From Thermoplasmata archaeon (GTDB lineage: Archaea > Thermoplasmatota > Thermoplasmata > Thermoplasmatales > GCA-001856825), in NCBI GenBank assembly GCA_021792255.1, contig JAJYUZ010000005.1:1-64000 (forward strand): a stretch of DNA of 64,000 bases. Direction: 5' to 3'. Below the pieces are notes generated by a model that worked only from the letters and a program-made list of their open reading frames with translations, did not search any database and was not told where the DNA came from. The position numbers were made by a program, and so were the translations under genes. Shown piece after piece: positions 28,177 to 59,804 of this stretch (position 1 is its first letter; the number at the start of each line of letters is the position of its first letter).

Positions 28177-28364
28177 TAGGTTTTATAACTCTCTTCATTA
28201 AGAACAGACAACATTTCTGCCTTCCGTGAATCATTCCGTCAATCCCCTGGCGTTCTATTTCTTTATACAGTAAAAGTAAAGTCTGCGGCTCGCTCAGTCT
28301 ATCCCACTATCTAGCGAGATCAAATGAGGTAAACAGTTCTGTGACTCTAAATGGTCCAGTAATG

Positions 28365-29026: not shown

Positions 29027-29137
29027 TTGATTTCTAATGTTTTCACAATATAAATAGCCATCTAAAACAAGGATCTCTGCATATCTCTCTAATTTCTCTG
29101 CATCTTTGGGTCTAGTTAAACTAACATAATCTTAATT

Positions 29138-41398: not shown

Positions 41399-42022
41399 AT
41401 CTTACTAATGAGAAGCCCTTTTTAAACCTTTGGAAATAAGTGTACTTTTTTTAGCATAATGATTAGTGTATCCACCCTGTCTATGTCTGGTTGCTGACCG
41501 ATTTATGCGTAGCCTAAACTTAGGTCTTTGGAAGCCTCTGGAGAATGGGCGCATATTAGCGTTTAACTCCTAAAAAAGGGAAATAACAAGGTAAAACATT
41601 TAAGTGCTTATAAACAGGTTGAAAAACAGCCTGAGAAGATGATGGGTTAAGTGCGCATCATGAATCAGTTACAAGAGAATAGAGGAAAATTGAAATGGAA
41701 AACATGAGTAGCACTTTAGATGGAAAGTGAGGAAGACGCATACAAGAATTCCATAACTGAGATAATTCAAGCCTGCTATAGCTTGTCCAGATCTTCACTA
41801 CTGCAGGATGCTAAACATGAGAGATTCATGCGTCCATTCCGTAGCACCGTAAGACAAGCAGCTACAATGAGCAATCATTGCAGATTCCACAGGTCATGCG
41901 CCACAAGTGCATCAATACGTGATTGATGGCGATATTCGCTGGAGCCTCAGTTCCAGAATCTCAGGGTTGATTTCCTCCAAAAAGCTAGCTTGATGTCAGT
42001 GAAATTCAAGGCAGCAAGAAAA

Positions 42023-42574
42023 TTAAGGAATCTTTTTCAGATACCTGAAATACATCATCTGCACTTCAGGCAAAGTCCAGCTGTACCGCGCATGAATACA
42101 GGCAAAGCTCTGGTCTTTTTCGCACCAGAGTCTCTGGATACCTTTGTCATCATTCTTCATGAGGATTGTTATCCTTTCATTTGACCTGAGGTCTTCGAGT
42201 ATGATGTGATCGTCGTATGCCCTTACGCTGAAGATCTGAGGCATCATTTCGAAAATATCTATTATATTAGATTCGCCTGAAAGTTGAGTCTGAGGGAGCT
42301 CAGTCCCGTTTAACAAGTCTTCGACCCTTCTCAGCTGAATCGCAGCAATCCTTCCCCTGTTCGTCAAGGAGATGAAGTATGTCCTCCTCACAATGACCTC
42401 CTGCCTCATCGTAATCAATCCGAGACTGACAAGGGACTCAAGGTTCCTCTCCAGTGAGTAGGAATTCGGAACTACATCCAGAAGAAATGACTTCGTTACT
42501 TCTGAACCTGCGTCGTAAAGCTTCAAGAGTATTGCACGCCCCTTATCAGATATCACATTCCAAAATTTAGCCAA
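42023..42574 (-). CDS. Winged-helix regulator with a C-terminal C-x7-C-x-H (SWIM-like) motif
   Basis: LERNLESLVSLGLI...YFISLTNRGR winged helix; LWCEKDQSFACIHARY. Confidence 0.75.
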   Translation of the reverse strand: MAKFWNVISDKGRAILLKLYDAGSEVTKSFLLDVVPNSYSLERNLESLVSLGLITMRQEVIVRRTYFISLTNRGRIAAIQLRRVEDLLNGTELPQTQLSGESNIIDIFEMMPQIFSVRAYDDHIILEDLRSNERITILMKNDDKGIQRLWCEKDQSFACIHARYSWTLPEVQMMYFRYLKKIP

Positions 42575-42653
42575 AGTATATAAAACCCATGATAAGAGAT
42601 ATTATTACGAAAGATATTTATATAATTATATCAGATAGTGTATGTGATATAAT

Positions 42654-43085
42654 ATGATAAACTCAAACAGTAATTCCGAAAAAAATGACATGCAAAAGAC
42701 AACAGAGGAGGAATATATCAGAATGGCAAACGAAAGGATTGGGATGGTCTTGAAAATCGTGTGCAGGAATTCATCTGATCCGAGCGCAAAGGAGTGGGAG
42801 ATATCGAGAATGATCGCTGAGAAAATGATAGATCCTTTCTACTATTGGCAGCATGAAGGACCAAATGAACTGGAATCTGAAAACGGAAAGAAGAATGAAG
42901 TCCTAATCAGTGAGATTGCAGAAAAGTACGACCTTGATCTTTCTGAGATTAAAAGCAGCCCCAGCAGGATAAAGATCAGGAAGTATATTGAGAATGGGTT
43001 TGAAGAGCTAAAGGTTAAAACGAAGGAAATGGGATATGCCTATGACAGGGAAAGCAGATCGTTCGTGAAGTGGATAAGAAAGTAG
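42654..43085 (+). CDS. Hypothetical protein divergent from the wHTH regulator
   Basis: 143-aa ORF with protein-like composition and an AT-rich divergent promoter at 42575-42653. Confidence 0.6.
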   Translation: MINSNSNSEKNDMQKTTEEEYIRMANERIGMVLKIVCRNSSDPSAKEWEISRMIAEKMIDPFYYWQHEGPNELESENGKKNEVLISEIAEKYDLDLSEIKSSPSRIKIRKYIENGFEELKVKTKEMGYAYDRESRSFVKWIRK

Positions 43086-43315
43086 ATTAGCACTGGTGTT
43101 CCTCAGTACGCCTTCTAAAAGGCGGTAGGACAGTAAACACAACCATAGGGGAACACATTGAAGGGTTGTTATTTCAGGAACTGCCGGCCGGTTCCCAAAG
43201 ATCGGCATGGTGAGGAAGTGGAAGAGGAAACGGAAATTTTTGTTCATGGTCATAAGGACGGAAGAGTTGGAGTGATGTTTTTCTGAAATCATGAGAATGA
43301 TCATGGGTACTCTCA

Positions 43316-43438
43316 GGTAAAGAAGTGGCAAAGGTGGTACATTACCTTAGTCATGGGTCGTGCGGAAAATTTGTGCATTTTTCCAATTTTACCGTGAATT
43401 TACCGTTTATTTTACCATCACTCTACCGCATCTTTACC
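43316..43438. repeat. Periodic GGTAAA/TTTACC hexamer array in two inverted arms
   Basis: GGTAAA 43316, GGCAAA 43327, GGTACA 43336; then TTTACC 43388, 43399, 43411, TCTACC 43422, TTTACC 43433 (spacing 11, 12, 11, 11). Confidence 0.75.
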
Positions 43439-43647
43439 GACTATTTTCACTCCATTTCACTACTAGGAGCTCATAGGAAGAACTGTTATAGTCTCGTATG
43501 CGTCAGGAGATGGACTGCGACCCGTCCTTGTTCTGGATAAAACATAACCTGCTATAGTCGCTATTAAATTTCTTCCAATCATCGAGGGTTTCGGAATCCT
43601 CAGTAGAACCTCAAAAAATTAAAATACGGTAAAAATAATCTAAATCG

Positions 43648-44424
43648 ATGAAGGTAGTCATATTAGCAGGGGGAAGAGGTACAAGGTTATCCGAGGAAAC
43701 AACGGTGAGACCAAAACCTATGGTAGAGATTGGAGAGCAACCGATTATGTGGCATATTATGAAAATTTATTCCCATTATGGTTTTAATGATTTTGTAATC
43801 TGTTTGGGATACAAAGGCAATGTCATAAAGGAATATTTTTACAACTACTTTATCCATGAATCTGACATTGAACTAAACTTGGCAACGAGGGACTTTAAAA
43901 CGTTGAAGAATCCTCCCGAACAATGGAAAGTCACCCTCGTGAACACAGGGCTCGATACCATGACAGGGGGGAGGATCAAGAGAATAAAAGACCATATTGG
44001 AGATGAAACATTCATGATGACATACGGAGACGGCCTTTCAGATCTGAACATTGGTTCTCTTGTCGATTATCACAAGGCCCATAGCAAATATGCGACCGTT
44101 ACGGCGGTCAAGCCACCAGGAAGGTTCGGTGCGATTTCATTACAGGAAAATGGTCTGGTATCTCAATTCACAGAGAAGCCAAGGGGAGATGGGTCGTTTA
44201 TAAACGGAGGTTTTTTTGTTCTCGAGCCTGCAATTTTCGACTATATTGAAGGCGATGGCACAATCTGGGAACAAGAGCCTCTCAGAAAGCTGTCGCGGGA
44301 CAATCAACTTATGGCTTTCAGGCACGATGGTTTCTGGAAAGCTATGGATACAATGAGAGATAAGATTGAACTAAAAAATCTTTGGAACAGCGGAAATGCA
44401 CCATGGAAGGTGTGGAAGAGTTGA
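43648..44424 (+). CDS. rfbF: Glucose-1-phosphate cytidylyltransferase
   Basis: ILAGGRGTRLSEET..RPKPMVEIG, TMTGGRIKR, TYGDG, INGGFFVL, FWKAMDT, APWKVW. Confidence 0.96.
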   Translation: MKVVILAGGRGTRLSEETTVRPKPMVEIGEQPIMWHIMKIYSHYGFNDFVICLGYKGNVIKEYFYNYFIHESDIELNLATRDFKTLKNPPEQWKVTLVNTGLDTMTGGRIKRIKDHIGDETFMMTYGDGLSDLNIGSLVDYHKAHSKYATVTAVKPPGRFGAISLQENGLVSQFTEKPRGDGSFINGGFFVLEPAIFDYIEGDGTIWEQEPLRKLSRDNQLMAFRHDGFWKAMDTMRDKIELKNLWNSGNAPWKVWKS

Positions 44425-44460
44425 TTAAAACCATGAACTTTAGGTATGGAGGAATTGACC

Positions 44461-44910
44461 ATGATTGATGGAACCAAAATTACCGAACTGCGGATTATAC
44501 CTGACGAGAGAGGGGCAGTATTAAGAATGCTTAGAAAAGATGATCCTGTCTTTTCCAAGTTCGGAGAAATCTATTTTTCGAAGGTTTATCCGGGCGTGGT
44601 TAAAGGATGGCATCTTCACAAGAAGATGACCTTAAACTACGCAGTTCCAGTCGGAATGGTCAAGTTGGTTCTATATGATAACAGGGAAAACTCCTCTACA
44701 AAGGGGGAGATAATGGAGCTTTTTATAGGGGAGACCAATTATCAGCTGGTAACTATACCTCCAAACGTCTGGAACGGTATTAAGGGAATAGGTACGGTGC
44801 CCGCTTTAATAGCCAACTGTGCAACAGAACCACACGACCCAAATGAAATAGTAAGGATGGACCCAGAGGACAACTTCATTCCCTACAACTGGAACTTAAG
44901 GTGGGGGTAG
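44461..44910 (+). CDS. NDP-4-keto-6-deoxyglucose 3(,5)-epimerase (RmlC-like cupin)
   Basis: DERG, FGEIYFS, KGWHLH, VLYDNR..SST, VTIPPNVWNG; start could be 44446. Confidence 0.88.
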   Translation: MIDGTKITELRIIPDERGAVLRMLRKDDPVFSKFGEIYFSKVYPGVVKGWHLHKKMTLNYAVPVGMVKLVLYDNRENSSTKGEIMELFIGETNYQLVTIPPNVWNGIKGIGTVPALIANCATEPHDPNEIVRMDPEDNFIPYNWNLRWG

Positions 44911-45857
44911 AGAAATTGAAAGTTCTCGTTACTGGGGCAAATGGCTTTATTGGTTCTCACGTGCTGGAAGCCTTAATAAAGGAAAATGGTTGGGAAATAG
45001 CCATTACTCTAAGACCTGAGTCTGATATCTCTAGAATAAGGAATATGTTGGAAGAATCAAATAGAATCAAGGCATATGTCTTGGGTGAACAAAGCTTAGA
45101 CAGCATCATTTCGAGTTTTAAACCTGACCTTGTTGTTAACTTTGCAGTTTACTACGAAAAGAAGGACCTTTATTCTAATATAGATCAAATGGTTGAAACA
45201 AACATATCATTTTCCTCTAAGATTTTAGATTCCATGTCAAGAAATGGAGGAAGGTTTTTTGTGAACACAGGGACTTACACAGAATTCCTAATGGATAAGC
45301 AAATCTTAGCTACAGAATCTAACGTTCACCCTGCCAATCTCTACTCCGCAACCAAGGCAGCATTCGAAAACATCTTAAAATATTACACCGAGAATTATAA
45401 TATAACTGCAGTCACATTGAACCTTTCAACTACTTACGGACCGAAAGATAAACCCAATAATCTAATTCCATATTTGGTGAATTGTTCTTTGGAAAATAGA
45501 GATGCAAATGTCTCAGCGGGGGAACAAATTTTGGATTTCGTTTATGTAAAGGATGTTGCAGAAGCATATGTAAAAGCTATGAGATACTTATTGGGCACCC
45601 ATAAAAATTACGACGTGTTTAGCATAGGAAGTGGCTCTCCTCACAATCTTAAGGAAATCGCTGAAATTATTAGCGGATTCGGTGGCAATCTCAGGATCAA
45701 CTGGGGGGCAATACCTTACAGCCTTCAAGAGACGTTCTTCTTCAAGTCTGATATAACCCACGCAAGGAATGTTCTCAGGTGGTGGCCAAAATATACACTG
45801 AGTGAAGGCCTCCGTGAAACCTTTGAATACTTTAAGGGTGTAAAGTCCCATGAATGA
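44901..45857 (+). CDS. NAD-dependent epimerase/4-ketoreductase (CDP-sugar reductase-like)
   Basis: VTGANGFIG, YSATK (YxxxK), TYGP.D, DFVYVKDV. Confidence 0.85.
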   Translation: MGVEKLKVLVTGANGFIGSHVLEALIKENGWEIAITLRPESDISRIRNMLEESNRIKAYVLGEQSLDSIISSFKPDLVVNFAVYYEKKDLYSNIDQMVETNISFSSKILDSMSRNGGRFFVNTGTYTEFLMDKQILATESNVHPANLYSATKAAFENILKYYTENYNITAVTLNLSTTYGPKDKPNNLIPYLVNCSLENRDANVSAGEQILDFVYVKDVAEAYVKAMRYLLGTHKNYDVFSIGSGSPHNLKEIAEIISGFGGNLRINWGAIPYSLQETFFFKSDITHARNVLRWWPKYTLSEGLRETFEYFKGVKSHE

Positions 45858-46143
45858 AGACATCTATCCAGAAATAAGCATACTTGGAGCAAGGCTCTCC
45901 GGACTTTCTCTCTATATTCCCGAAGGTTTCGCTCATGGATTCTTAACCCAAGGAGAAAGTAATATCGTCCTTTGCCTTGTTGATAAACGCTATAGCCCTC
46001 AACACGAAGGTGGCATTAGGTACGATTCATTTGGTTTTCATTGGCAGATATGTACGCATAAAACACTATCAAAGAGGGATCTCTCGTTCATCAAGTTCAG
46101 CAACTTTCGCACGCCATTCGGAGGTAATATAAATGAAAGGTAA
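45850..46143 (+). pseudogene. C-terminal fragment of a dTDP-4-dehydrorhamnose 3,5-epimerase
   Basis: LYIPEGFAHGFLT...YSPQHEGGIRYD...LSKRD; the N-terminal DxRG and RGLH region is missing. Confidence 0.75.
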
Positions 46144-47215
46144 TTTATCAAAAGATCATTTAGAGTTTTTTGGAAAGAAGAAAATTCTAATAACCGGTCA
46201 TACTGGTTTCATTGGTTCCTGGCTTACAAAATGGCTCTCGATGCTGGGTTCCCAAGTTTTAGGGTACTCTTTAGATCCTTCAACACATCCAAATATGTTC
46301 TCTAATCTAAATTTTGGAAGTAATTTAATCGATGTTCGAAATGATATCCTCAACAAAGAGTCTTTGAAAAAGGCTGTAAGTGACTTTGAACCAGAGATAG
46401 TATTTCATTTAGCGGCACAACCTATAGTGTTAGAATCATATAACAATCCAGAATATACCTATCAAACAAACGTTATTGGGACAGTTAACCTTCTAGATAT
46501 TTTACGAAAAAATCAATCCGTGAAGGTTATAGTGGTAATTACAAGTGACAAAGTTTACGAAAATGTGGAATGGATTTATCCGTATCGTGAGACCGACCCA
46601 TTAGGTGGGAAGGACCCTTACAGTGCGAGTAAATCTTGTCAAGATATCGTAGTAAGTTCGTTTAGGGAAAGCTTTTTTGCCGGTCGCGATGTAAGTGTAT
46701 CTTCCATAAGGGCTGGTAATGTTATTGGGGGTGGTGATTGGGGGGAATTTAGGCTGGTACCTGATATTGTAAGGGGAATTACTCAAAAGAAGATTATCGA
46801 TTTAAGAAATCCTTACTCAACTAGACCATGGCAACACGTTCTTGATCTAGCATTTGGAATGATGAAATTAGCCGAGATGAGTTGGTTGAACACCGAATAT
46901 GCAGGGATCTGGAATTTTGGGCCTACTGGCGCAGACAATTTAACGGTGAAAGAACTTGCCGGCAGATTAATTAATTTTTGGGGAGCCGGCGAGTATAAAA
47001 TCTCAAAAAGTGGAAAATTTTACGAGGCATCTTATTTGAAACTTGATATAAGCAAGGCTAGGCATATGCTAAACTGGTACCCGCTAGTTGATATTGATCG
47101 GTCGGTGGTAAAGACTGTTGAATGGTATAAGAAATATTACCACGGTCGTAATGAAATTAATAAATTTACAGAAAAACAGATCAATGAGTATTCCGAGAAT
47201 AGAAATGCGAAGTGA
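46133..47215 (+). CDS. rfbG: CDP-glucose 4,6-dehydratase
   Basis: ITGHTGFIGSWL, FHLAAQP, TSDKVY, DPYSASK, RAGNVIGGGDW, RPWQHVLD, WNFGP. Confidence 0.95.
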   Translation: MKGNLSKDHLEFFGKKKILITGHTGFIGSWLTKWLSMLGSQVLGYSLDPSTHPNMFSNLNFGSNLIDVRNDILNKESLKKAVSDFEPEIVFHLAAQPIVLESYNNPEYTYQTNVIGTVNLLDILRKNQSVKVIVVITSDKVYENVEWIYPYRETDPLGGKDPYSASKSCQDIVVSSFRESFFAGRDVSVSSIRAGNVIGGGDWGEFRLVPDIVRGITQKKIIDLRNPYSTRPWQHVLDLAFGMMKLAEMSWLNTEYAGIWNFGPTGADNLTVKELAGRLINFWGAGEYKISKSGKFYEASYLKLDISKARHMLNWYPLVDIDRSVVKTVEWYKKYYHGRNEINKFTEKQINEYSENRNAK

Positions 47216-48191
47216 AGCGATAACGGGTAATAGATTAATATGCGAGTTAAAAGAAGAGCCCATAAATCTATTTTTCAGTCTCGCTGATTATAGGAACAGT
47301 TATTTCACAAGCAACGACCAGAACAAGATAATGGAGTTCTATGAAGGGGTTCAAGATTCAGAGGAACTAATTGAATGGATGAGAGAAAGACCAAAAGGTG
47401 TATCATATGTTCATGAGGTCGAAGGCGACAAGGAGATTGTTGTCGTCATAACAACGGCCGACTTTGATGGCAAGTACGCGAAAGAATGCAGAGATAATAT
47501 ATTTAAAGGCCTCCATTTGATATTTGTAGAAAGTGGAGGAAGAGGTGACTTTTATTTCAACATTGCGCACAACATCAACGTCGGAATTAAGAAAGCGATG
47601 GAATACAATCCAAGATGGGTTGTGTTTTCTAATGACGATATGGTAAAACAGGATGAAATTTCAGTACTTCAAGAGGCGCTGAAGAATTACGATCCTTCTA
47701 AGACAGGAATAGCGTATTTTTATCCCAGCACAAGTTACCACTCTAGGGAAATGAATATATCCACCATTAGGAAAACAAGATCAATTGTGAATCCACTGCT
47801 GCTCTATTCCCGCCGGAAGGCATTTGATATTCTAAAGAAATTTAACACTAAATTCGTTCTATCTGGGGGTTCTATCCGGGACTTACTCTTTTATAAGAGA
47901 GTACTCACGTTCAGGAATACAATTGCCATTGCTGTTTATTCAGCGGAAATGATAAAAGAATTTATCTCTAGATACGGTTGTTTTTTTGACGAAACATACA
48001 TAAATTCTGGCGAAGATGGTGATCTCGCATTAAGAGTTCAAAAGGCAGGATGGGAAAAAGGGGAGGTCAATTTTAGGATACGTCCCCTCATAGGTGGAAC
48101 CTTTGGCAATTCAGACAGCAGGTACCTGAGGGATCAAGCCGGCAACATCTATTTTTCAAAGAAGCGAGAGGAAGAGGAACATGACTTTTAA
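47184..48191 (+). CDS. GT-A/GT2-like glycosyltransferase, paralog of 55933-56913
   Basis: IFVESG...FNIAHNINVG...SNDDM, FDETYINSGEDGDLALR; start uncertain (47118, 47184 or 47205). Confidence 0.72.
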   Translation: MSIPRIEMRSEAITGNRLICELKEEPINLFFSLADYRNSYFTSNDQNKIMEFYEGVQDSEELIEWMRERPKGVSYVHEVEGDKEIVVVITTADFDGKYAKECRDNIFKGLHLIFVESGGRGDFYFNIAHNINVGIKKAMEYNPRWVVFSNDDMVKQDEISVLQEALKNYDPSKTGIAYFYPSTSYHSREMNISTIRKTRSIVNPLLLYSRRKAFDILKKFNTKFVLSGGSIRDLLFYKRVLTFRNTIAIAVYSAEMIKEFISRYGCFFDETYINSGEDGDLALRVQKAGWEKGEVNFRIRPLIGGTFGNSDSRYLRDQAGNIYFSKKREEEEHDF

Positions 48192-48285
48192 GTCACGGTC
48201 GTACTCCAACGCAACTAGATTCCTTGGAAAAGTCATTTACAGTGGAGCTATACCGATTGTTTTACCGCGTCTTTACCGGCAATAA
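48181..48285 (+). pseudogene. 5' remnant of a DUF2079-like gene (paralog of 56885-58990)
   Basis: MTFKSRSYSNATRFLGKVIYSGAIPIVL aligns without gaps to MPYRYSSHHKVPGFIGQIINRRTIPIIL, with the same position relative to the upstream GT; similarity stops at the TTTACC motif. Confidence 0.6.
48261..48277. repeat. Copy of the 17-bp motif (TTTACCGCGTCTTTACC)
   Basis: Matches 43422-43438 and the reverse complement of 54624-54640. Confidence 0.65.
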
Positions 48286-48357
48286 TTTATCGCTCTTTCC
48301 TTTTATAGGGTGATGGGATTAGATTTTATGAATTCAAATGGGTTGAGAAGTGAACTA

Positions 48358-49400
48358 TAGTTAAGGACATTTGTAATTGATTATTATTAAATATTATATC
48401 CGTATACAGATACCATGGTGGAAATGGGTATTGATGAGCTCAAGCTCAATTACAGGAATGAGAAGGATGCGGATGTGCGAGAACGCATCCTCATGATCAT
48501 ATGGCTGAAGTCAGGCATATCCAGCTACAAGATTGGTGAAAGACTGTTCTGTCCCCAGTCCAAGGTCATCTACTGGAAGAAGAGGTATGCAGAACATGGA
48601 ATGGATGGTCTAAGAACAGTCCAGAAATCTGGAAGGCCTACACAAATGGATGAAGTCACAGAACAGCATATAAAGGAAGAGCTATCCTCAAAGGAATACT
48701 GGAAATCCACCCAAGTCTCTTCCATAATCAGGGAGAAGGGCAGAATGATCTACACTCAGAGGCATGTGCGCCGTTTAATGCAGAAGTGGGGTTATTCCCT
48801 AGTAACTCCAAGGAAGAAGCACAAGAAGGCAGCCTCCGATGAAGAGGTTGAAAACTTTAAAAAAAATCCGCAGAGATACTGGGTTCTCTCAGGAAGGGAA
48901 TGACTGCGGTGTGCATGGATGAGTCCATATTCGTATACGACTCAATAGTAAGAAGGGTGTGGGCAAGGAAGGGAAGCAAGCCAAGAATCATGACAACGGG
49001 TTCTCACAAGAAGGTGCTTCTATCCGGTGCAGTTGCATTAGACGGATCGACTCTATTCCGTTCCTATGAGGGCATGGCATCAAGGGAATTCATCTCCTAT
49101 CTCAGTGCACTGAAGAGGAAGTATGGAAAGTACGTACTGTTCTACGATGGTGCACCCTGGCACAGATCTGAGAAAGTGAAAAGATTCCTCAAGAAGAACA
49201 GGAGGAGGATAAAGCCTGTGATGTTTCCAGCATGTTCTCCCGAGCTTAATCCTGTGGAGGAGTGCTGGAACATAGGAAAGAACACCCTCCTTGGGTCTAC
49301 GGTGCCGGACAGCTTCGAAAAATTGAGGAGAGAGGTATCGGAATATTACAGGACAAAGAAGTTCCATCTAAATATAATCAACTACATATGTCCATATCTA
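48358..49400 (+). mobile_element. IS630-family insertion sequence, apparently intact
   Basis: Terminal inverted repeats 24/28 identical including the flanking TA (TATAGTTAAGGACATTTGTAATTGATTA vs TATAGATATGGACATATGTAGTTGATTA); TA duplication at 48356-57 and 49401-02. Confidence 0.92.
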
Positions 49401-49403
49401 TAA
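48415..49403 (+). CDS. IS630 transposase, two ORFs joined by a probable -1 frameshift
   Basis: OrfA HTH (W.KRY...GMDGL...SGRP) and OrfB DDE (MDES, YDGAPWH, SPELNPVEECW); A8 slippery run near 48859-48866 joins the frames (FKK-SAEILG...MTAVCMDES). Confidence 0.9.
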
Positions 49404-49711
49404 TATTCCTCCTTGTATCAGACGTAGCCGATCTTACTGAGGTCTTGGGTTCATTTCTTGCGGTTATCCAATCAGGCGCTGAACTTCAAACAGTTACCTT
49501 CCCTTGTAAGTTTGTATTTCTCAATGGTCGCATTGAATGAAACGTTATCGGTTGTCTTTCCGCTATCGGGTATCCGTTGCTTAGTCTGCGCCGTATATCA
49601 TTCTTCCATTCTAGAAATTTTTCCGGTTTCGAACGGTTCCTTATATCTTTCTACTCGTTATCAGTTGTCATTTTATAGAAAATTTATAAAGTTATTGTTA
49701 ATCCTCTGGCT

Positions 49712-50641
49712 ATGGCAGGGGCACTTGTTTCGGGTGGAAATGGTTTCTTGGGATCACATTTGGTTGAAAAACTACTTAAAGAGTGTCTTGAAATTACAGT
49801 TGTGGATGACCTATCTACTATGGAGGAAATGAATTTGCCAAAAGACGTTCGATTTGTGAAAAAGAAAATTGAGAATTTCAAAACTGAAGAAAAATTCGAC
49901 TATGTGATTCATATGGCCGCAAGACCTTCGCCTGAAGACTACATCCAGAATCCGATTGATACTTTGATGTCTAATTCAAAGGGTACTAAGGTGATGCTGG
50001 ACATAGCGCGATTGTCTAACGCAGTTTTTCTGTATACTTCTTCTTCAGAAGTGTATGGGGAAGCTTCCACAATCCCCACGCCTGAGAGCTACTTCGGATA
50101 CGTTAACAGCATCGGTCCGAGGAGCTGTTATGATGAAGGGAAAAGGTATTCCGAATCTCTAATTATGGCTTATTACAGACAGTTCAATCTAGACGTAAGA
50201 ATAGAGAGACCGTTCAACGTGTATGGACCCAGGATTAGGGCTGACGGATTTTATGGCAGGGTCATACCAAGGTTCGTTACATCGGCATTAAATGATAAAG
50301 ACTTAATAATCTACGGGGATGGTCAACAGACTCGCTCCTTCCTATACGTTAACGATTGGGTCGATGCCACTTGGACCTTTCTGACAGAAAGGAATCTTTC
50401 CGGCCAATTTATTAACGTAGGATCAAGGGATGAGATTACAATTAACGATCTCGCTGAGAAAATTGTGAACATCACCTCCTCTCAATCGAAAATTGTCAGG
50501 GTAGAAGGTAGACAAGATGATCCCAGAAGGCGTGCAGCAGATATTACCAAAGCTGGGGAATTATTAAAATGGAAGTCAATGACGAGCCTAGATGAGGGGC
50601 TTCGCCAGACCATAAGTTGGTTCAAGGGGAGAGAGATATGA
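49712..50641 (+). CDS. UDP-glucuronate decarboxylase (UDP-xylose synthase-like)
   Basis: GGNGFLG, SSSEVYG, GPRSCYDEGKR, FNVYGPR, QTRSFLYV, DDPRRR. Confidence 0.88.
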   Translation: MAGALVSGGNGFLGSHLVEKLLKECLEITVVDDLSTMEEMNLPKDVRFVKKKIENFKTEEKFDYVIHMAARPSPEDYIQNPIDTLMSNSKGTKVMLDIARLSNAVFLYTSSSEVYGEASTIPTPESYFGYVNSIGPRSCYDEGKRYSESLIMAYYRQFNLDVRIERPFNVYGPRIRADGFYGRVIPRFVTSALNDKDLIIYGDGQQTRSFLYVNDWVDATWTFLTERNLSGQFINVGSRDEITINDLAEKIVNITSSQSKIVRVEGRQDDPRRRAADITKAGELLKWKSMTSLDEGLRQTISWFKGREI

Positions 50642-51861
50642 AGATTTCTGTGGTAGGACTAGGATTTGTTGGCCTAGTTACCTCAGTGGTACTCTCTAGG
50701 GCTGGTAATAACGTTATTTGCATAGATACCGATGAATCAAAGATAAATAGACTGAACAAAGGGGAGCTATACATATACGAACCGAAGCTAGATTCCTTGT
50801 TTACAGATCAAAAAAGTAAGATGAGATTTGAAACTGATTACTCTGACGTAAAGGGGAGCGACTTGACTTTCGTTTGCGTTCCGACACCAACAGTGAACGG
50901 CCGGAGCGACCTATCGTTTGTTCGAGATGCTGTAACAAGAACAGGCAAAGTGGATAGAGAAACAATAATTGTTATAAAAAGCACAGTTCTTCCAGGAACA
51001 GCTAAATCTCTTTCCTCTGCCATTAGCAATAGGATAATTTCCAATCCTGAATTTCTTAGAGAGGGTTCAGCCGTAGATGATACACTACATCCTGACAGGA
51101 TAGTGATCGGAGGAAGGGATAATGCGGCTTTGGACAAGGTTGAGGGGGCTTGGAGATTCTGCGGATCACCCATAGTCAGAACGACAAATGAGAATGCAGA
51201 GCTTATAAAGTATGCATCTAACTCATTTCTTGCTGCGAAGATTTCTTTTATAAACGAAATATCTGACCTCTGCGAGAGAATTCCAGGTACGGATGTAGAA
51301 ATTATTGCAAAAGGAATGGGGTTGGACCACAGGATAGGAAGAGAATTCCTCAGGGCAGGGCTAGGGTTCGGCGGTTCCTGCTTTCCAAAAGATACCCGAG
51401 CGATAGCAGAATATGCGAATAAAATAGGGACTAGACTGTCCATAGTCGAATCCGCAATTGACGTCAATGAAAGAAGGGTCGAAAGGGGAGTTAAAATCAT
51501 AGAGAATACAATGGGCAGTCTTAACGGTAAGAGGATATGCCTGCTTGGTTTGAGCTTCAAAGAAAACACAAACGACCTGAGGGAGTCGAGGGCGTTGGAC
51601 TTAGCAAGGGCGCTTAGAGAAAGAGGTGCACTAGTCTATGCATATGATCCGGTCATAAAAGACATTGAAGGCATTGGAACACTGAGAAGTGCTGAGGAAT
51701 GTGATGGCATGGATTGCGTTGTTGTTTCTTCGGAATGGAAAGAGTTTGAAGACCTACCGCTGTTCAAACGAGCTAACAATGTGATAGATCTTAAGAGGAT
51801 TGTGAATACTGCGACTAATCCAAGTGTCAAGTCAATAGGGGTTGGATATGCAAAGAATTAG
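50638..51861 (+). CDS. ugd: UDP-glucose 6-dehydrogenase
   Basis: VGLGFVG, CVPTP, IKSTV.PG, NPEFLREG, KYASNSFLA, GFGGSCFPKD. Confidence 0.93.
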   Translation: MKISVVGLGFVGLVTSVVLSRAGNNVICIDTDESKINRLNKGELYIYEPKLDSLFTDQKSKMRFETDYSDVKGSDLTFVCVPTPTVNGRSDLSFVRDAVTRTGKVDRETIIVIKSTVLPGTAKSLSSAISNRIISNPEFLREGSAVDDTLHPDRIVIGGRDNAALDKVEGAWRFCGSPIVRTTNENAELIKYASNSFLAAKISFINEISDLCERIPGTDVEIIAKGMGLDHRIGREFLRAGLGFGGSCFPKDTRAIAEYANKIGTRLSIVESAIDVNERRVERGVKIIENTMGSLNGKRICLLGLSFKENTNDLRESRALDLARALRERGALVYAYDPVIKDIEGIGTLRSAEECDGMDCVVVSSEWKEFEDLPLFKRANNVIDLKRIVNTATNPSVKSIGVGYAKN

Positions 51862-52651
51862 AAAGGCTGTGATCCCTGCAGCAGGTTACGGAAAGAGGTT
51901 CTATCCGCTCACCAGAGCTCAGCCCAAGGAGATGCTTCCAGTTCTCGACAAGCCGGTCATTCACTACGTCGTAGAGGAGGCAGTGTCGTCGGGACTAGAT
52001 GAAATACTGATCATAGTTGGAGCAGGAAAGGACGCAATAATAAATTACTTTGACAAGAACAAAATGGACGACGAGCTTGACAATTACGGTTTCAAAGGAA
52101 TGCCCGATATTTACTTCGTAAGACAGAAAGAGCAGAAGGGACTGGGTGACGCGATAAGGTATGCAAAAAATTTCACAGGCGACGATGACTTTGTAGTTCT
52201 TCTAGGCGATACAATTTACAAATCAGAAACAGAAAGGACGGTAACTTCGCAGTTGATAAATCTGTACGAAAAGACGGGTTCCCCTTCGATTATCGTTGAA
52301 AGGGTAAAAGCGGAAAAAATAAGAGATTACGGTATTGTTGACGGTGAAAAAGTCTCGGATGATGTCTTCAGGGTTAGATCTATTGTAGAAAAACCCGATC
52401 CATCCGACTCGCCCAGCGACTTAGGAGTCACGGGTATATACATTCTAGGTCCATACATTTATGAATGTCTGGAGAACATACCTCTAGGAAGGAACGGAGA
52501 ATACCAGCTAAGCGATGCATACAATCTGCTCGTAAAGAAAATGGATGTGTTCGCACTGATCATGAAAGGCAAGAGATACGATATAGGAACGAAGGAACTG
52601 TGGATAAAGACTTTTATAGAGTTCGCAAGCAAGCACGGCGGATACGGATGA
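51848..52651 (+). CDS. galU: UTP--glucose-1-phosphate uridylyltransferase
   Basis: KAVIPAAGYGKRFYPLTRAQPKEMLP, RQKEQKGLGDA, VEKP, EYQLSDA, RYDIG. Confidence 0.92.
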   Translation: MQRIRKAVIPAAGYGKRFYPLTRAQPKEMLPVLDKPVIHYVVEEAVSSGLDEILIIVGAGKDAIINYFDKNKMDDELDNYGFKGMPDIYFVRQKEQKGLGDAIRYAKNFTGDDDFVVLLGDTIYKSETERTVTSQLINLYEKTGSPSIIVERVKAEKIRDYGIVDGEKVSDDVFRVRSIVEKPDPSDSPSDLGVTGIYILGPYIYECLENIPLGRNGEYQLSDAYNLLVKKMDVFALIMKGKRYDIGTKELWIKTFIEFASKHGGYG

Positions 52652-52782
52652 AGTTAATGTCAAATGTGCTTGTTACAGCGGGAGCAGGGTTCATCGGGAG
52701 TTCCAGTGTTGACATGCTCGTGGAAGAAGGGTGTTACGCTAGTCTGATAGACAACTTTGAAAGATGCGTTCATAGGGAGTAA
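52648..52782 (+). pseudogene. N-terminal remnant of an NAD-dependent epimerase (GalE-like)
   Basis: MKLMSNVLVTAGAGFIGSS.VDMLVEEG....IDNF then stop; ATGA-coupled to galU. Confidence 0.75.
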
Positions 52783-52951
52783 GAAGTCAGTTCCTCGTGC
52801 TTAATAGTGATTTTTTCCCAAACATAGTCTCAGTAACATGAGTGCCATATAAGTTAAAATATCTGGCCAACTAGAGAAAGTATTCACATATCTGTTGATA
52901 TTCATTTGGCTTCGTGCCAAATATTATTAAGATGAGTTCTTATAGAACAAT

Positions 52952-54106
52952 ATGACGCTCAAAGTAGCATTCATTATGTTCAGCAATCTAAGTGTAGGTA
53001 GAGGTACAGAGAATATTGTGATGCAGTACTGCAAATTTTCTCCCTCCGACGTGGACATCACGATATTTCAGACAGATTTTCCGAGAGGCGAGGTTCAAGA
53101 AAAAGATTTTGACTTTGGATTATCCAAGCCCAAAATAGTCACGTTAAGAGGATTCGATCAGAGGTCAATTTTTCCTTCGAGGTCAATAGTGGTATTGGCC
53201 CTAACTCTTTATGTAAGATATCCCTTTCTTTTTTTAGCTTTAAGATTTATAAAAGAATATCGAGAAATGAGAAAGCAACTCAAGGATTTTGATGTCGTTT
53301 ATGTGTTCGGAAACTATTGGTCTTCGCTAGTTCCAAGAGGGCCTATAGTTGTCGGCTCGCCTCAAGGTTGGGAGCCGGAAAGAATCGGGGTTCTCAAGGC
53401 GCTAAACACATCAATTATTGGTAATGGACTCATATGGAGAAGAATTGATTATTTTCATTTGTTTCCTAGAAATAGCTGGTTTCTTGAAAGATATAACAAA
53501 AAAGGATTTGTCTTAGGCAATGGAAGCAGGTTATTATCCAGTTCGTCCGAAACCATTAAAGAAAACAATAAATTGGAATTTTGCTTTTTAGGCGCTCTTG
53601 AGGAATGTAAAGGCACTCTCACAGCTGTTAAGGCGTTTGAACTCCTAAGAGAGAGGGTAAGAGACAGGGAATTGGAGCTTCACTTAGTTGGGAGTGGTCC
53701 TCTCTTAAACGAGATCGAGGAAGGACAAGGGATGGTAAAGCACGGATTTATAGGCAACAAGAAAGAATTGCAGTCAATATTGAGTTCTTCAGATTGTTTC
53801 ATTTATCCAACCACCTGTGATACATTTGCTTTAGTTGTTATCGAGGCTTTGTCCGCAGGCACATATGCGATTGTATCAGACAGACTGCGGGGGGTTTATG
53901 ATAAATTTGAATATATGGGGGTACTGGAATACTGTCCGCCAACAGCTCATGCACTGGCTGATCAAATGCAGAATTTTTTAGCTAAAAGTGTGCCAAAGAA
54001 AAATTTTGACATCGCACGCCAGTTGATTCTAAGAGAGTATTCGTGGGAATCTATCACGGAAAAACTATTTGCAGAATTTAGGAAGTTAGTCAAAGAAAAT
54101 TCTTGA
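52952..54106 (+). CDS. GT4 (GT-B) glycosyltransferase
   Basis: FLGALEECKG, LVGSGP, DTFALVVIEALSAG, YSWE. Confidence 0.88.
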   Translation: MTLKVAFIMFSNLSVGRGTENIVMQYCKFSPSDVDITIFQTDFPRGEVQEKDFDFGLSKPKIVTLRGFDQRSIFPSRSIVVLALTLYVRYPFLFLALRFIKEYREMRKQLKDFDVVYVFGNYWSSLVPRGPIVVGSPQGWEPERIGVLKALNTSIIGNGLIWRRIDYFHLFPRNSWFLERYNKKGFVLGNGSRLLSSSSETIKENNKLEFCFLGALEECKGTLTAVKAFELLRERVRDRELELHLVGSGPLLNEIEEGQGMVKHGFIGNKKELQSILSSSDCFIYPTTCDTFALVVIEALSAGTYAIVSDRLRGVYDKFEYMGVLEYCPPTAHALADQMQNFLAKSVPKKNFDIARQLILREYSWESITEKLFAEFRKLVKENS

Positions 54107-54623
54107 CCTTCTTCTAACTTGGAAAGTCTATGTTCTACATTTTTCTCATCCTTTTAACCAGACGCATTTAACCAATACTGGTGATAACCTGCGCGATGGC
54201 GAGACTGCAATAAGTCTGAACATGACTTTCGATCTTTGATGTTCTGAAGTCTAGGACTATTCGTGCCTTTAATTGTGTATTGCTGCAATGGGTTGTTGTG
54301 GGGAATCTCAACTCCCCGTCGACAGAGGATGACAGTAATGATGCCGGTATGCTATTCTAGTGGGTCTTCCTTTGTCTCGAATCTGTGTTGAGCAACTATG
54401 ACATTATAGAGAAGTATCTCTCTGCAATTTCAATTGTCTTTTCATAGTTACTGTTTACAAGATAAAGGAATACCTTTCGCTTTCCCCTGTTCTTCTTTAG
54501 GAATGAGTGGAATATTAAAATAAAAGGGAGGTGAAATGGCAGAAACCACTCCTTAATTTATTTCGCCGTTTGTCTCAAACTGCTATAAACACTACATAAG
54601 ATATATAGACTGCGAGGAAAGGT

Positions 54624-54640
54624 GGTAAAGTTGCGGTAAA
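54624..54640. repeat. Inverted copy of the 17-bp motif (GGTAAAGTTGCGGTAAA)
   Basis: Preceded by GGAAAGGT and followed by CTATCTTAA, resembling the left arm at 43327-43350. Confidence 0.65.
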
Positions 54641-55042
54641 CTATCTTAATTTTTAGCGCTGCCGGATAATAAAATTTTTAACCAGCTTATATACTCAAGT
54701 TGCTCAGAATAATAAATAAGAGCATACGTAGAAGGTCTGACCGATAAGAGATTTTACAAGTCAGTCATAAAAACAAGGAAAAGAGGTTAGGTGACGGGAC
54801 TTGTTTCTTTATAAATTCTTGTCTGAAATTAGGAGAAATATTACCCTTTCATGTATAAAATCTGCGGAATCATTTATTAGGAATAATTGTAATAAAAAGA
54901 AGGGAACATAACGGGTTTAACTTCTAATGTAACCGACATAAATTGCAGTCGATCTTAACTGACACACACATTGGCAGCCGTGCCTTAGTTGCAAGAGAAG
55001 ATAATTATATCAGGTAAGCGATACCTTTTACTAGGAACTCGT

Positions 55043-55861
55043 ATGACCGTAGGGGCATATACTTTTGCAACAAGAGACTGGAAGGACCTTGAGTACCCAT
55101 TGGACCTTTATATCAAGTGGAACCATCTGCATTTTGATGAAGTAGCAATTTATACTTACGGAAATATAGACATACAATCAGACATACCGTCAAACGTTAA
55201 AATAATCCAAGGCATTGACCCTCAAAGCAAAGGACTCGATTTCTACCGTTTCGGCTTACACAATGCGATGCGAGAACTTTCCACGGACTGGAAGGTTTAC
55301 CTTGCACTAGATGAGTTCATAGAGAGAAGAATAGATACAAGCAATCTTAACCGTCATCTGGCTTATCCCCTGCGTAGAATAGACCTTTATGGTAATGTTC
55401 AGACAGCTATAGAAGGGGCATTTGTTAGATATCAATACTGTATTCATAACGGCAATAGGCGGTTGTTGGGGGACGGTGGTTCTATGATGCCACCGTATTC
55501 CGGAAGAATCCATATGGATGGGGTTGCTGCCTTTGTAAAACAGCTTATTACTAGGAGGCCAACATACAGGGATGAACCTATATTTACGACAAATTCCTTC
55601 CCAGGAACATTATACCATACCAATTCTCTCAGATCGCCAGAAAGAATGAGCAAGAAATGGCTACTTCAATTCACACGGGAAATCGATGGCGGAATTAGGA
55701 GAGACGATTTCAATAATGGACTTAAAAAAGTGCTGCTTAAGCCATTTAGATACGAGGACTATAAACTATACTGGCCTAGGGCGAAGTTGATTCGCGTGGA
55801 ACCACCAAGCATTATTCTTGAAAATAGGGAGCGGTTCGTAAACGTCAACTTGTCCGCCTGA
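55043..55861 (+). CDS. Putative GT-A-fold glycosyltransferase
   Basis: WNHLHFDEVAIY, LSTDWKVYLALDEFI (DxD-like), LYH; glycan-locus context. Confidence 0.6.
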   Translation: MTVGAYTFATRDWKDLEYPLDLYIKWNHLHFDEVAIYTYGNIDIQSDIPSNVKIIQGIDPQSKGLDFYRFGLHNAMRELSTDWKVYLALDEFIERRIDTSNLNRHLAYPLRRIDLYGNVQTAIEGAFVRYQYCIHNGNRRLLGDGGSMMPPYSGRIHMDGVAAFVKQLITRRPTYRDEPIFTTNSFPGTLYHTNSLRSPERMSKKWLLQFTREIDGGIRRDDFNNGLKKVLLKPFRYEDYKLYWPRAKLIRVEPPSIILENRERFVNVNLSA

Positions 55862-55932
55862 AGTACTCTAAAAAGATGAATAGAAATGGCAAATGAGATA
55901 TATTTGTTGAAGTTTCACCTAATAGACGCTTT

Positions 55933-56913
55933 ATGTACGGTCTTTGTTGCCCCTTAGAACAGAATGGAAAAGGTTTGTTCTTGAGCCCTACTGATTATCG
56001 TAACAATTACTTCATAAGTAACAATATAGAAAGGATTTTAGAGTTTTACGAAGGGTTTGGAAACAGGGAAGAACTAATTGAATGGATGAGGGAAAGACCC
56101 AAGGGTCTACCTTACGTATACGAGGAGGAAGGAGATAGAGAAATTATTGCAGTAATACCTACTGCCGATTTCAATGGGAAACTTGCTCTGACTTGCAGGG
56201 AAGAAGTCTTCAAAGGTGTTCATATTATATTCGTTGAAAGTGGAGTTGGTAATAATTACTTCAATTATGCGCATAACTGTAACGTTGGGATCATGAAAAC
56301 TATAGAATACAATCCAAAATGGGTCGTGGTTTCAAATGATGATATGGTGAAAAAAGAAGAAATTTCAGTCCTCAGAGAGGCTCTGAGGAGCATTGATCCA
56401 TCGAAGGTCGGAATTGTTTACTTCTATCCGAACACAGATTATCATTCAAAGGAAATAAGTGTATCTACGGTCAGGAAGATCAGGTCGGCCGTGAATCCCC
56501 TTTTGCCCTACTCAAGAAGGAAAGCGTTTAATATCCTGAAGAAATTTAAAGTTAAATTCTTCTTGTCTGGGGATTCATTCAAGGACTTTATCTTTTTTAT
56601 AAGAAAATTCAAATTTAAGAACACAATCTCCATTAAGGTCTATTCAGCAGAAATGATTAAAAAATTTATTTCGCGGCTCGGCTACTTTTACGATGAAATG
56701 TATGTAAATTGCGGTGAAGAGGGTGATCTTGCATTAAGAATACAAAGGTCTGGATGGGGAGGGGAAGTAGCAAATTTTAAGATATGGCCGCTCATAGGAT
56801 CATCATTTGGCAATTCAGACAGCAGATACTTGAGAGATCAGGTTGGAAACATCTATTTTTCGAAGAAGTTGGAGGACGAGGGGTATGCCCTACAGGTACT
56901 CGTCACACCATAA
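55933..56913 (+). CDS. GT-A/GT2-like glycosyltransferase, paralog of 47184-48191
   Basis: Shares EELIEWMRERPKG, YNP.WVV.SNDDMVK and FGNSDSRYLRDQ.GNIYFSKK. Confidence 0.72.
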   Translation: MYGLCCPLEQNGKGLFLSPTDYRNNYFISNNIERILEFYEGFGNREELIEWMRERPKGLPYVYEEEGDREIIAVIPTADFNGKLALTCREEVFKGVHIIFVESGVGNNYFNYAHNCNVGIMKTIEYNPKWVVVSNDDMVKKEEISVLREALRSIDPSKVGIVYFYPNTDYHSKEISVSTVRKIRSAVNPLLPYSRRKAFNILKKFKVKFFLSGDSFKDFIFFIRKFKFKNTISIKVYSAEMIKKFISRLGYFYDEMYVNCGEEGDLALRIQRSGWGGEVANFKIWPLIGSSFGNSDSRYLRDQVGNIYFSKKLEDEGYALQVLVTP

Positions 56914-58990: not shown

Positions 58991-59026
58991 ATTGTCAGTA
59001 TTATTTCAAGGCAATATAAGGAGGGA

Positions 59027-59695
59027 TTAGCGAATTAGCTCGGTAGAAACATCGGATATTTCCCTGATGACCTTTGCAGGGTTCCCATATGCCAGGCTAT
59101 TTTTTTCTATGTCTCTAGTGACTACAGATCCAGCCCCTATGAGAACATTATCCCCTATATTCACGTCTTCTATGATAGTTGTGCCAGAACCTATCCAGCA
59201 GCCCTTTCCTACTTTTACCCCCCCTGCCATGTTTACGCCGGTCGAAATTGTGGAATAATCTCCAATATTCATATCATGTCCAACGGTGGCGTTCATGTCT
59301 ATTAGAACAAATTTTCCGACTTCAACATTTGTCATAATGCCTACCCCAGCCTGTATAACGCTTCCATAACCGATCGATACGTAATCTTCCACGTTTGCAG
59401 AAGGGTGAACAAGAGACTGAAATTTAAATCCCAAAGATATAGATCTCTCTATTGCGTTTCTTCTGTTCGGTCTACCGAGGCCATTCAGAAGAACAACATT
59501 TCGCCTATCTACACTAAGAATATCAGATTCAGTGATGCACGGCAACCCATTTATTATTTTTCCTTTTTCTTTGTCCAGACCTATGAACCCTCTCACACCT
59601 AAGTCAGGAATCGCCTTCTTTGCTATTGACAAAATCTGTCTCGCTTGTCCGCCCGCACCGACAATGTAATATTCCACCACTTGTATATGATTCAC
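59027..59695 (-). CDS. Sugar N-acetyltransferase (PglD/NeuD/PerB family)
   Basis: IVGAGGQA, LVHPSA, VGHD, hexapeptide repeats, IGAGSVV...YGNPAK. Confidence 0.9.
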   Translation of the reverse strand: MNHIQVVEYYIVGAGGQARQILSIAKKAIPDLGVRGFIGLDKEKGKIINGLPCITESDILSVDRRNVVLLNGLGRPNRRNAIERSISLGFKFQSLVHPSANVEDYVSIGYGSVIQAGVGIMTNVEVGKFVLIDMNATVGHDMNIGDYSTISTGVNMAGGVKVGKGCWIGSGTTIIEDVNIGDNVLIGAGSVVTRDIEKNSLAYGNPAKVIREISDVSTELIR

Positions 59696-59804
59696 GGCAT
59701 TAATTTATAGTTTTCATCAACTCTCGCATAACACAGATTGTGATTCATTTCATCACGCTATCATTTCAGAAAAGGTTGAAATAGCCGAAATATCTCTTAA
59801 TTGA

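Follow-up and report, generated by a model that had tools for sequence, protein, structure and literature searches.

Repeat arrays and their known or proposed reader proteins

Short repeats read by DNA-binding proteins have been described in several settings. In the ParR/parC system of plasmid R1, two sets of iterons with an 11-bp period lie on either side of a central region, and a small DNA-binding protein occupies them in a cooperative manner; the repeats are all direct and private to the system, and ParR is a ribbon-helix-helix protein paired with the actin-like ParM. The arm sites of lambda-family integrases are short direct repeats at a spacing of about one helical turn, set in two opposed arms that flank a core with an identical overlap and adjoin the integrase gene. 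OmpR and PhoB boxes are direct repeats with a 10-11 bp period, read head to tail by the helix-turn-helix (HTH) of bacterial winged-helix response regulators and placed close to the -35 element. Here we describe a phased direct repeat in a 64,000-nucleotide stretch of the genome of a Thermoplasmata archaeon (the window), where it lies in an island of surface-glycan genes, and we compare it with these systems and with two others.

BldC of Streptomyces, a MerR-like protein, forms head-to-tail multimers that bind cooperatively to variable numbers of direct repeats (PMC5859096). The closest described system that we found is KfrA of the IncU plasmid RA3 (KfrA is also present on IncP-1 plasmids). KfrA has an N-terminal HTH head and a long, alpha-helical, self-associating tail (PMC7783346, PMC7821693). 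Its operator, which is unique in the replicon, is built from five short direct repeats, of which three share one orientation and two have the opposite one (PMC7783346).

Based on the observations outlined below, we posit, with a probability of roughly 0.6, that the arrays in this archaeon are cognate docking sites of a KfrA-like protein that would regulate or organize the surface-glycan island. The likely binder, judging from sequence comparisons, is a 439-amino-acid protein with an HTH and long helices (HTH-CC), one of the HTH proteins already singled out by an earlier note on this DNA. That note had preferred integrase-driven swapping of sugar-pathway cassettes and had named iterons or a transcription-factor regulon as alternatives; it is the alternatives that the comparative evidence favors.

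40079 to 41398, minus strand: HTH-CC, 439 amino acids, candidate array binder; Pfam HTH_23/GerE match at residues 5-42 plus weak coiled-coil hits

A phased repeat concentrated on one contig

The window is positions 1-64000 of contig C9 in an assembly of 1,587,011 bases and 11 contigs that is 93.55% complete (genome G000; G000-G163 are genome labels, L-numbers locus labels, f1 and f7 families, g1 and g4 genera). Chance expectation for the motif was taken from 100 dinucleotide shuffles of the window, and the reversed pattern served as the control genome-wide. For comparison we used 24 genomes from the family, 168 from the order at large, and 73 loci of relatives (417,229 bp).

The motif GGTAAAGWYGCGGTARA has three exact matches in the window, at 43422-43438 (minus strand), 48261-48277 (minus) and 54624-54640 (plus), against a shuffle mean of 0.00, and 14 of the 17 positions, spacer bases included, are invariant across the three copies, just as the earlier note had reported. 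With up to three mismatches there are six matches where 0.61 are expected, a number reached in none of the 100 shuffles; the additional matches are at 43316 (plus), 43388 (minus) and 36911. A genome-wide scan, which the earlier note had proposed, finds the motif with at most one mismatch at the same three places only, and the reversed control has no match; the motif is not spread evenly over the genome.

The motif is two units of a direct repeat, (C)GGTAAA, phased at 11 bp, and the arrays hold two to five units. Because sites 1-3 are all built of these phased units, the 17-mer is the best-preserved two-unit stretch of a direct repeat with one unit per helical turn.

43316 to 43342, plus strand: left arm of site 1, with GGTAAAG at 43316, GGCAAAG at 43327 and a degenerate, out-of-phase GGTACAT at 43336
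43387 to 43440, minus strand: right arm of site 1, five (C/T)GGTA(A/G)A units at 11-12 bp spacing, including the motif copy at 43422-43438
48250 to 48279, minus strand: site 2, three phased units, with TACCG at 48251, 48263 and 48274, including the motif copy at 48261-48277
54624 to 54640, plus strand: site 3, two units, GGTAAAG-TTGC-GGTAAA

In the right arm of site 1, TACCG recurs at 43390, 43401, 43413 (as TACCA), 43424 and 43435, with spacings of 11, 12, 11 and 11; on the GGTAAA strand the units are CGGTAAAG, CGGTAGAG, TGGTAAAA, CGGTAAAT and CGGTAAAA, in steps of 11, 11, 12 and 11 bp. The two arms are inverted and face each other across about 40 bp, and these unit positions bear out the earlier description of a two-armed inverted array with about 11-bp phasing before rfbF. 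When the three sites were aligned with 100 bp on either side, nothing common emerged beyond a repeat core of 17-20 bp.

The looser pattern GGTAAA-N5-GGTARA has five matches in the genome (43388, 43422, 48261, 54624 and 78611), all on C9, which makes up 5.4% of the genome, and the four perfect GGTAAA-N5-GGTAAA pairs of the genome all fall inside 35 kb. Allowing up to one mismatch in the two hexamers gives 19 genome matches, 7 of them on C9, against 25 and 4 for the reversed control. The right arm of site 1 is among eight genome segments with an autocorrelation of at least 28/44 at lags 10 to 13, and the other seven, read from the printed sequence, are runs rich in purines, pyrimidines or A/T, or runs of longer repeats. 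Lag autocorrelation misses arrays with mixed 11- and 12-bp spacing, and we therefore used k-mer chains for array detection, the strict criterion being at least four identical 5-mers in 10-12-bp phase. The word is not conserved in the 24 family genomes, where the pattern gives three single matches with one mismatch against 13 for the reversed control. In viral contigs, more than 120 stretches hold one match each, as chance predicts for about 15 specified bases.

A fourth site at the promoter of a probable surface-glycoprotein gene

The fourth site lies outside the window, at C9:78611-78627, and adjoins the TATA box of a large open reading frame (ORF). The site, GGTAAATATTTGGTAAA, ends at -34, with TTTTTATATA next; TTTTTATATATTT stands directly after the site, and the ATG of the ORF, which encodes 1,175 amino acids, follows 33 bp past it at C9:78661. 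This site abuts the transcription factor B recognition element and TATA box, as a promoter-proximal operator would, and sites 1-3 do not. In the 1,175-residue protein a signal peptide is combined with a C-terminal membrane anchor, and N-glycosylation sequons number 1.53 per 100 residues versus a genome mean of 0.78; signal peptide, anchor and sequon density together make it a probable surface glycoprotein. It is homologous to a gene that adjoins, in locus L035, the conserved module described below. An array was also sought upstream of the other surface-protein gene (30337), and none was found there.

The genome encodes the TATA-binding protein, and a search for sigma-70 found none. Promoters are leaderless in type; for 979 ORFs taken together, A+T content is highest near -25 relative to the start codon, and the TATA-like hexamers begin between -29 and -26. 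Sites 1-3 are all intergenic. Site 1 lies between the ORF of p143, a 143-residue protein, and rfbF; site 2 is downstream of a glycosyltransferase-like ORF (47118-48191); and site 3 is within an 880-bp gap downstream of a GT4 gene. The rfbF promoter has TTAAAATA at -30, the uxs promoter has TTTATAA at -28, and for the ORF that follows site 3 a TATA-like box stands about 40 bp ahead of the first ATG (55043). Since all three genes have TATA boxes of their own, sites 1-3 are upstream of the proximal promoters and off them.

A conserved module in relatives

A DNA search of the 24 family genomes found the region after p143 conserved in contig C38 of genome G010, and among the genome contigs this was the only one with the conserved core pattern of site 1. 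The TTACC cores of both arms are kept there, the spacers differ, and similarity ends at the outer end of the right arm. The first two left-arm units of site 1 are kept in G010:C38 and also in the left arm of G010:C6, where an HTH-CC gene is preceded, at a distance of about 200-320 bp, by a two-armed array of the GGTAAA type. Site 3 and the start of that left arm agree at 18 of 22 bases, by letter count on the printed rows. Homologues of p143 (41-46% identity) precede a phased array in G010:C38, G005, G009 and L035. Relatives of p143 occur at seven loci in genome contigs, and p143 stands directly before the main array in all five f1-family loci that have arrays.

In G005, G009 and L035 the same place after p143 is occupied by six or seven GTTCAAA units at 11 bp. 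In G005, G009 and G024 this array lies 510-620 bp before the HTH-CC gene. The GTTCAAA word pair is found at the locus only (4 of 4 genome matches in G005, 3 of 3 in G009), and all five genome matches of the word pair of G085 are likewise at its locus. The downstream HTH-CC form has 675-678 residues in G005 and G009, with an N-terminal HTH_23 and coiled-coil-like remainder, and 377-378 residues in G024 and L035; the longer G005 and G009 proteins resemble that of the window in architecture.

A profile of the 130-residue head finds the domain in 29 of the 168 order genomes and returned 32 loci. Strict arrays are present in 7 of these loci, in no shuffled locus, and in none of 300 random 3.3-kb windows of this genome. 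A relaxed scan detects an array in five of nine upstream regions, two of them new (G163 and G152), which raises the count to 9 of 32 (control, 4/200). In all nine cases measured by script, the array is off the proximal promoter, at a distance of 275-620 bp upstream from the gene start. Across about ten loci, the repeat word and the recognition helix of HTH-CC change together, in four to five classes:

helix ISHPT(V/A)GK, word GGTAAA: G000 and G010
helix RSIGIVNA, word GTTCAAA: G005, G009 and G024
helix (K/R)STVQD, word (G/A)TACGG: G113, G125 and G152
helices AKSTVQD and AKSTIED, word GTCCG: G105 and G163
helix SKDTANG, word TGTCTA: G085

Two other proteins of the locus could in principle be the ones that dock on the arrays:

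42654 to 43085, plus strand: p143, conserved upstream partner of the main array; no family hit
42023 to 42574, minus strand: p183, a 183-residue protein, winged-helix-like by sequence reading; no Pfam, NCBIfam or PHROG hit

The constant position of p143 directly before the array in the five f1 loci would suit such a role, as would the fact that the best p183 family relative is, like the GGTAAA-type array, in G010 (E 2.4e-10). Identity of p143, however, does not track the repeat word (43% between window and G010, 46% between window and G005), and tblastn at E of at most 1 did not detect p143 in six f7 loci with about 8 kb of flanks, three of which (G113, G105 and G085) carry arrays. Weak relatives of p183 occur in 9 of the 24 family genomes, several at contig ends; eight of these genomes lack a GGTAAA-type pattern above control, the ninth being G010, and no p183 relative is present in the G005, G009 or L035 loci. 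We consider docking of p143 or p183 unlikely.

Glycan genes neighbor the module in all f1 loci examined and in three of the four f7 loci whose neighbors were scanned. Loci L047 (G005, genus g1) and L048 (G024, genus g4) share 2,569 bp at 90.5% identity in a match that stops short of the locus ends, and the longer loci L031 and L035 have no similarity outside this 2.57-kb match. With the module 90.5% identical between two genera and its flanks unrelated, we conclude that its DNA does move. By gene order and sequence similarity, p143, array and HTH-CC appear as a discrete unit. We speculate further that an order-wide and so far undescribed family of KfrA-like HTH/coiled-coil proteins may have private phased arrays in glycan islands, with a 3.5-kb module that moves between genera and paired changes of helix and word that would yield insulated circuits; this wider picture is tentative and, on balance, doubtful.

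Some further features of these loci stand on their own. In L047, L048 and L049, a second, weaker phased run of (T)AGGAA lies about 80-150 bp before the HTH-CC start, near the promoter of the gene. Three species conserve the 750 bp between p143 and HTH-CC at about 89%, more than binding sites alone need. In L032 (G010:C38), positions 7701-7745 hold four GTATTCA units at 12-bp spacing, 73-117 bp upstream of a gene, convergent with the p143 array, that encodes a 232-residue protein with a transposase-like HTH. The word CATGG(G), sometimes in a CCCAT/ATGGG dyad, occurs within 100 bp beyond the arrays (window 43302-43307 and 43352-43357; also L076, L077 and L047-L049). As a universal second word it was rejected: a script counted it at five of nine loci, three of them close kin, against a background of 0.15 per 100 nucleotides.

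HTH-CC as the candidate binder

AlphaFold models the N-terminal 130 residues of HTH-CC as a three-helix HTH followed by a helical bundle (mean predicted local distance difference test score [pLDDT], 85.9). The full-length model is all-helical, with long helices at residues 134-193 (60 residues) and 284-368 (85 residues), at a low-confidence pLDDT of 61.7. The head fold has no match in the PDB at E of at most 0.001, only local, generic HTH similarity (LuxR/GerE, DeoR, Pax). PHROG, NCBIfam and Pfam gave no informative family for p143, p183 or HTH-CC; the ESM Atlas gave nothing usable for p143 and, for the HTH-CC head, only leads below 0.9 to archaeal HTH_23 clusters.

A homologous-protein search with HTH-CC returned only itself and P0003, which is 49% identical and was not found in metagenome or genome contigs; p143 was not found in metagenome contigs. 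The head has 171 cluster representatives at E of at most 1e-10 among 1.84 billion proteins, and the sole source name seen for a relative reads simply "SbcCD ATPase", a generic label. Of the 24 family genomes, only G010 has a full-length homologue of HTH-CC (C6; E 4.7e-57), and G010 is also the only other family genome with GGTAAA-type arrays; the two proteins are 32% identical overall and share 32 of 60 residues over the HTH region, as counted on the alignment. The G024 protein gives a weak partial match to that of the window, over residues 199-349 (E 1.4e-8). Contigs with relatives of a locus gene belong to Thermoplasmata or Thermoplasmatales metagenome-assembled genomes, and the stretch itself is present in mine-drainage, tailings and sediment metagenomes.

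The repeats and their phasing, confinement to this locus and conservation are observed directly, as is the joint change of word and recognition helix; from these data we infer binding of the arrays by HTH-CC, its oligomerization, and an effect on transcription. In the mechanism that we propose, each N-terminal HTH would read one repeat unit, and the long helical tails would join HTH-CC into dimers or higher oligomers, leading to cooperative loading on one face of the DNA. The two-armed array of site 1 would be the home site of HTH-CC inside the conserved module, and through sites 2 and 3 and the fourth site, parts of the surface island would come under HTH-CC as well. At the fourth site this could mean direct control of transcription initiation at the surface-glycoprotein gene; at sites 1-3 it could mean distal control, or bridging or looping between arrays. 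In the wider, doubtful picture raised above, the sites would have dispersed to four positions across 35 kb of this genome, and a single protein could then bridge and co-regulate, or switch, the whole coat island of this wall-less archaeon.

Another possibility is that the same protein does not act on transcription. As a scaffold, a role proposed for plasmid KfrA, HTH-CC might tether or position the island DNA, in segregation or at the membrane or pole, or might stabilize an acquired module. Its HTH and long-helix architecture fits this idea, as do the placement of the arrays 275-620 bp from the gene start in all nine measured loci and the exchange of a self-contained unit between genera. In addition, the repeat operator of RA3 KfrA is required for plasmid maintenance (PMC7783346). 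In contrast, the arrays here are on a chromosome, and the neighbors scanned include no gene for a partition ATPase; the fourth site takes the classic position of a repressor or activator site on a promoter; and the linkage to genes for glycans and surface proteins, which is constant, suggests a function connected with them. We rate such a purely structural role as distinctly improbable.

Recombination, duplication and the insertion sequence

Two features next to site 2 bear on whether the repeats mark sites of recombination:

48181 to 48285, plus strand: DUF2079 remnant, 34 codons, the start of a duplicated DUF2079 gene, running into site 2
48356 to 49402, plus strand: IS630-family insertion sequence (IS) element, with HTH_23/32/33 and DDE_3 ORFs; no second copy in the genome

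The earlier note held that site 2 lies exactly where a duplicated DUF2079 gene is cut off and that sites 2 and 3 are half-sites resembling attL and attR. The truncation is real insofar as the remnant aligns with residues 5-42 of the DUF2079 gene at 56843-58990 (tblastn, 39%, E 6e-5), of which roughly the first 40 codons are duplicated; ORF 47118-48191 itself is not DUF2079, being a full-length paralogue (65% amino acid identity) of 55933-56913. As for attL and attR, the orientations do fit two arms and site 2 is at the end of the duplication, but that model would place the rest of the DUF2079 gene to the right of site 3, where self-blastn and the ORF lists show none.

Taken in full, that proposal makes the arrays integrase arm sites and sites 2 and 3 the products of circle integration, through which sugar cassettes are inserted or exchanged. 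Sites 2 (minus) and 3 (plus) are indeed oriented as the right and left arms of site 1 would be after integration, the duplicated glycosyltransferase/DUF2079 homology ends inside site 2, the module is shared between genera with unrelated flanks, and an intact tyrosine recombinase is encoded at 26808-28091. Homology between the window and G010:C38 likewise stops where the right arm finishes on its outer side. Against this, site 1 is a stable and conserved component of a gene module in another species, and tblastn found no homologue of the integrase in the 73 loci of relatives, including all fetched loci that bear arrays; the arrays travel with the gene of the HTH protein, not with a recombinase gene. 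No common core or overlap sequence stands beside the three sites, whose likeness is limited to 17-20 bp, and the left end of the duplication (about 47235 and 55942) has no motif. To the right of site 3, self-blastn of 42000-60000 and the ORF lists show no continuation of DUF2079 (no tblastn was aimed at 54641-54988). The weak site at 28276, which the earlier note had placed near the integrase, lacks a second half-site, and the fourth site is on a promoter, not at a junction.

Metagenomes point weakly the same way. Contigs of four runs from three studies have the reference arrangement across the sites, with no listed joint at a motif, although contigs hide rare variants; site 2 is bridged unchanged by contigs of all four runs and site 3 by contigs of three. 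With no integrase homologue in the loci of relatives, no shared core and no alternative junctions in the contigs of four runs, integrase-driven cassette swapping is very unlikely.

The IS630 element, which the earlier note does not mention, has 37-nucleotide inverted repeats at 48356-48392 and 49366-49402 that are 81% complementary. Site 2 lies 78 bp outside these repeats, and the motif is not part of the transposon ends. The idea of a composite transposon with sites 2 and 3 as its ends was rejected: IS630 carries inverted repeats of its own, and the genome holds no further copy of it. At 48859, one base is absent in some metagenome contigs of IS630, and depth is higher over the element; the missing base and the rise in depth indicate that diverged copies of IS630 are present in the communities, although the assembly has only one copy. 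The integrase itself, at the start of 26808-29620, has a C-terminal zinc ribbon and two PIN-domain genes beside it (28365-28844 and 29138-29620), and a paralogue, 41% identical, is encoded on contig C3.

Points that weigh against docking by HTH-CC

Several observations weigh against the arrays being docking sites through which HTH-CC acts on the island. Sites 1-3 are about 208, 387 (with the IS removed) and 403 bp upstream of the proximal promoters. By our criteria, 23 of the 32 loci with the HTH-CC domain have no array, most of them with forms of about 330 residues. The HTH-CC gene of the window is 2 kb from site 1 with two genes in between, unlike the arrangement in relatives. The covariation of word and helix could reflect co-inheritance of neighboring DNA rather than recognition. 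The homology of the duplication fades at about 48265-48270, inside site 2, which fits a recombination-linked role as well. Finally, the array is confined to a single locus in all relatives whose whole genomes were scanned (G005, G009, G085 and G010), so that the secondary sites are peculiar to this genome and could be relics.

A related idea is that site 1 alone is functional and that sites 2 and 3 are decaying array fragments, scattered by the rearrangement, duplication and IS activity that glycan islands typically show. The single array locus of each relative would agree with it, and so would the place of site 2 at the end of a duplication and near an IS, and the distance of sites 2 and 3 from proximal promoters. 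Yet 14 of the 17 positions, spacers included, are kept while the flanks are unrelated, and decay would not spare exactly the best two units; in addition, the four perfect pairs of the genome are all inside 35 kb. Part of site 2 also aligns with DUF2079 coding sequence that differs at motif positions, which suggests gain or retention rather than loss. Decay of sites 2 and 3 is, in our estimation, an unlikely account, and we continue to prefer docking by HTH-CC.

Other sequences near the sites

A single half-site was seen in front of rfbF:

43627 to 43635, plus strand: half-site CGGTAAAAA, single, between the rfbF TATA box (43618-43625) and the ATG at 43648

It may be a chance occurrence; CGGTAAA has 200 occurrences in the genome. 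Within the rfb block, a 97-residue ORF at 45850-46143 matches only the C-terminal third of dTDP-4-dehydrorhamnose 3,5-epimerase, and a 154-residue RmlC-like ORF occupies 44446-44910; these may represent a gene fragment from rearrangement within the block.

Next to site 3, positions 54499-54597 hold a noncoding element of about 100 nucleotides, a short hairpin followed by a T-rich run, that ends about 27 bp before the site. The element recurs intergenically in this genome (C11:153324-153404 and C7:283706-283785) and in several relatives at 71-79% identity, in many cases where a contig ends. At gathering score it has no Rfam match, and it could represent a small RNA, a terminator module or a miniature mobile element. 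A second stretch, 54300-54513, is noncoding, with stops in all frames, and is 72-73% identical to loci in G006, G010 and G014 and to C7:235601 of the same genome. In the uxs TATA region, 40 bp (49669-49708) are 87-91% identical to several relatives, some at contig starts, a conservation that is unusually high for promoter DNA.

An Rfam scan of the window returned two tRNAs and nothing else. One of them, at 21881-21970, is called by ARAGORN as a 90-nucleotide selenocysteine tRNA (anticodon TCA) and by Rfam as a tRNA only; it may be a long-arm or intron-bearing tRNA. We know of no selenocysteine use in Thermoplasmata.

Why the arrays matter

To our knowledge, Thermoplasmatales have no cell wall and no regular S-layer; the glycan coat and surface glycoproteins are thus the interface with extreme acid. 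For the control of the highly variable surface-gene islands of these organisms, a testable handle is offered by a conserved, putative DNA-binding protein whose helix-to-repeat code is readable and apparently re-programmable, and one possible use is as orthogonal protein/operator pairs for archaeal genetics. Integrase-driven cassette exchange is a tempting story that the analysis leaves unsupported.

Comparison with known systems

Our literature search found no archaeal system described with such a protein and array. An origin of plasmid or viral iteron type would call for an initiator, and no Rep or Orc-type family was found among the neighbors scanned. Unlike integrase arm sites, the arrays have no core that we could find and no linked integrase in relatives; unlike OmpR and PhoB boxes, they come with no receiver domain. 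The ParR/parC system differs in that no such genes are present here and in that the arms of site 1 are inverted. BldC, with 68 residues and no coiled coil, is a bacterial protein with a genome-wide regulon, and in these respects differs from HTH-CC.

From KfrA, the module is set apart by its setting in glycan loci of an archaeal chromosome rather than on a bacterial plasmid, and by the absence of the KfrA family in Pfam scans (E of at most 0.001 for the window and at most 0.1 for G009 and G005), which gave only HTH_23/GerE and coiled-coil noise. The operator differs as well: KfrA has abutting 9-mers, whereas the units here are 6-7 bp long with a period of 11-12 bp, and the array lies 275-620 bp from the gene and not over its promoter, with secondary sites in this genome. 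What the two share is the overall plan. As in KfrA, HTH-CC is predicted to have a globular HTH head and a long helical tail, and in both systems the gene of the protein and a site in cis form one module.

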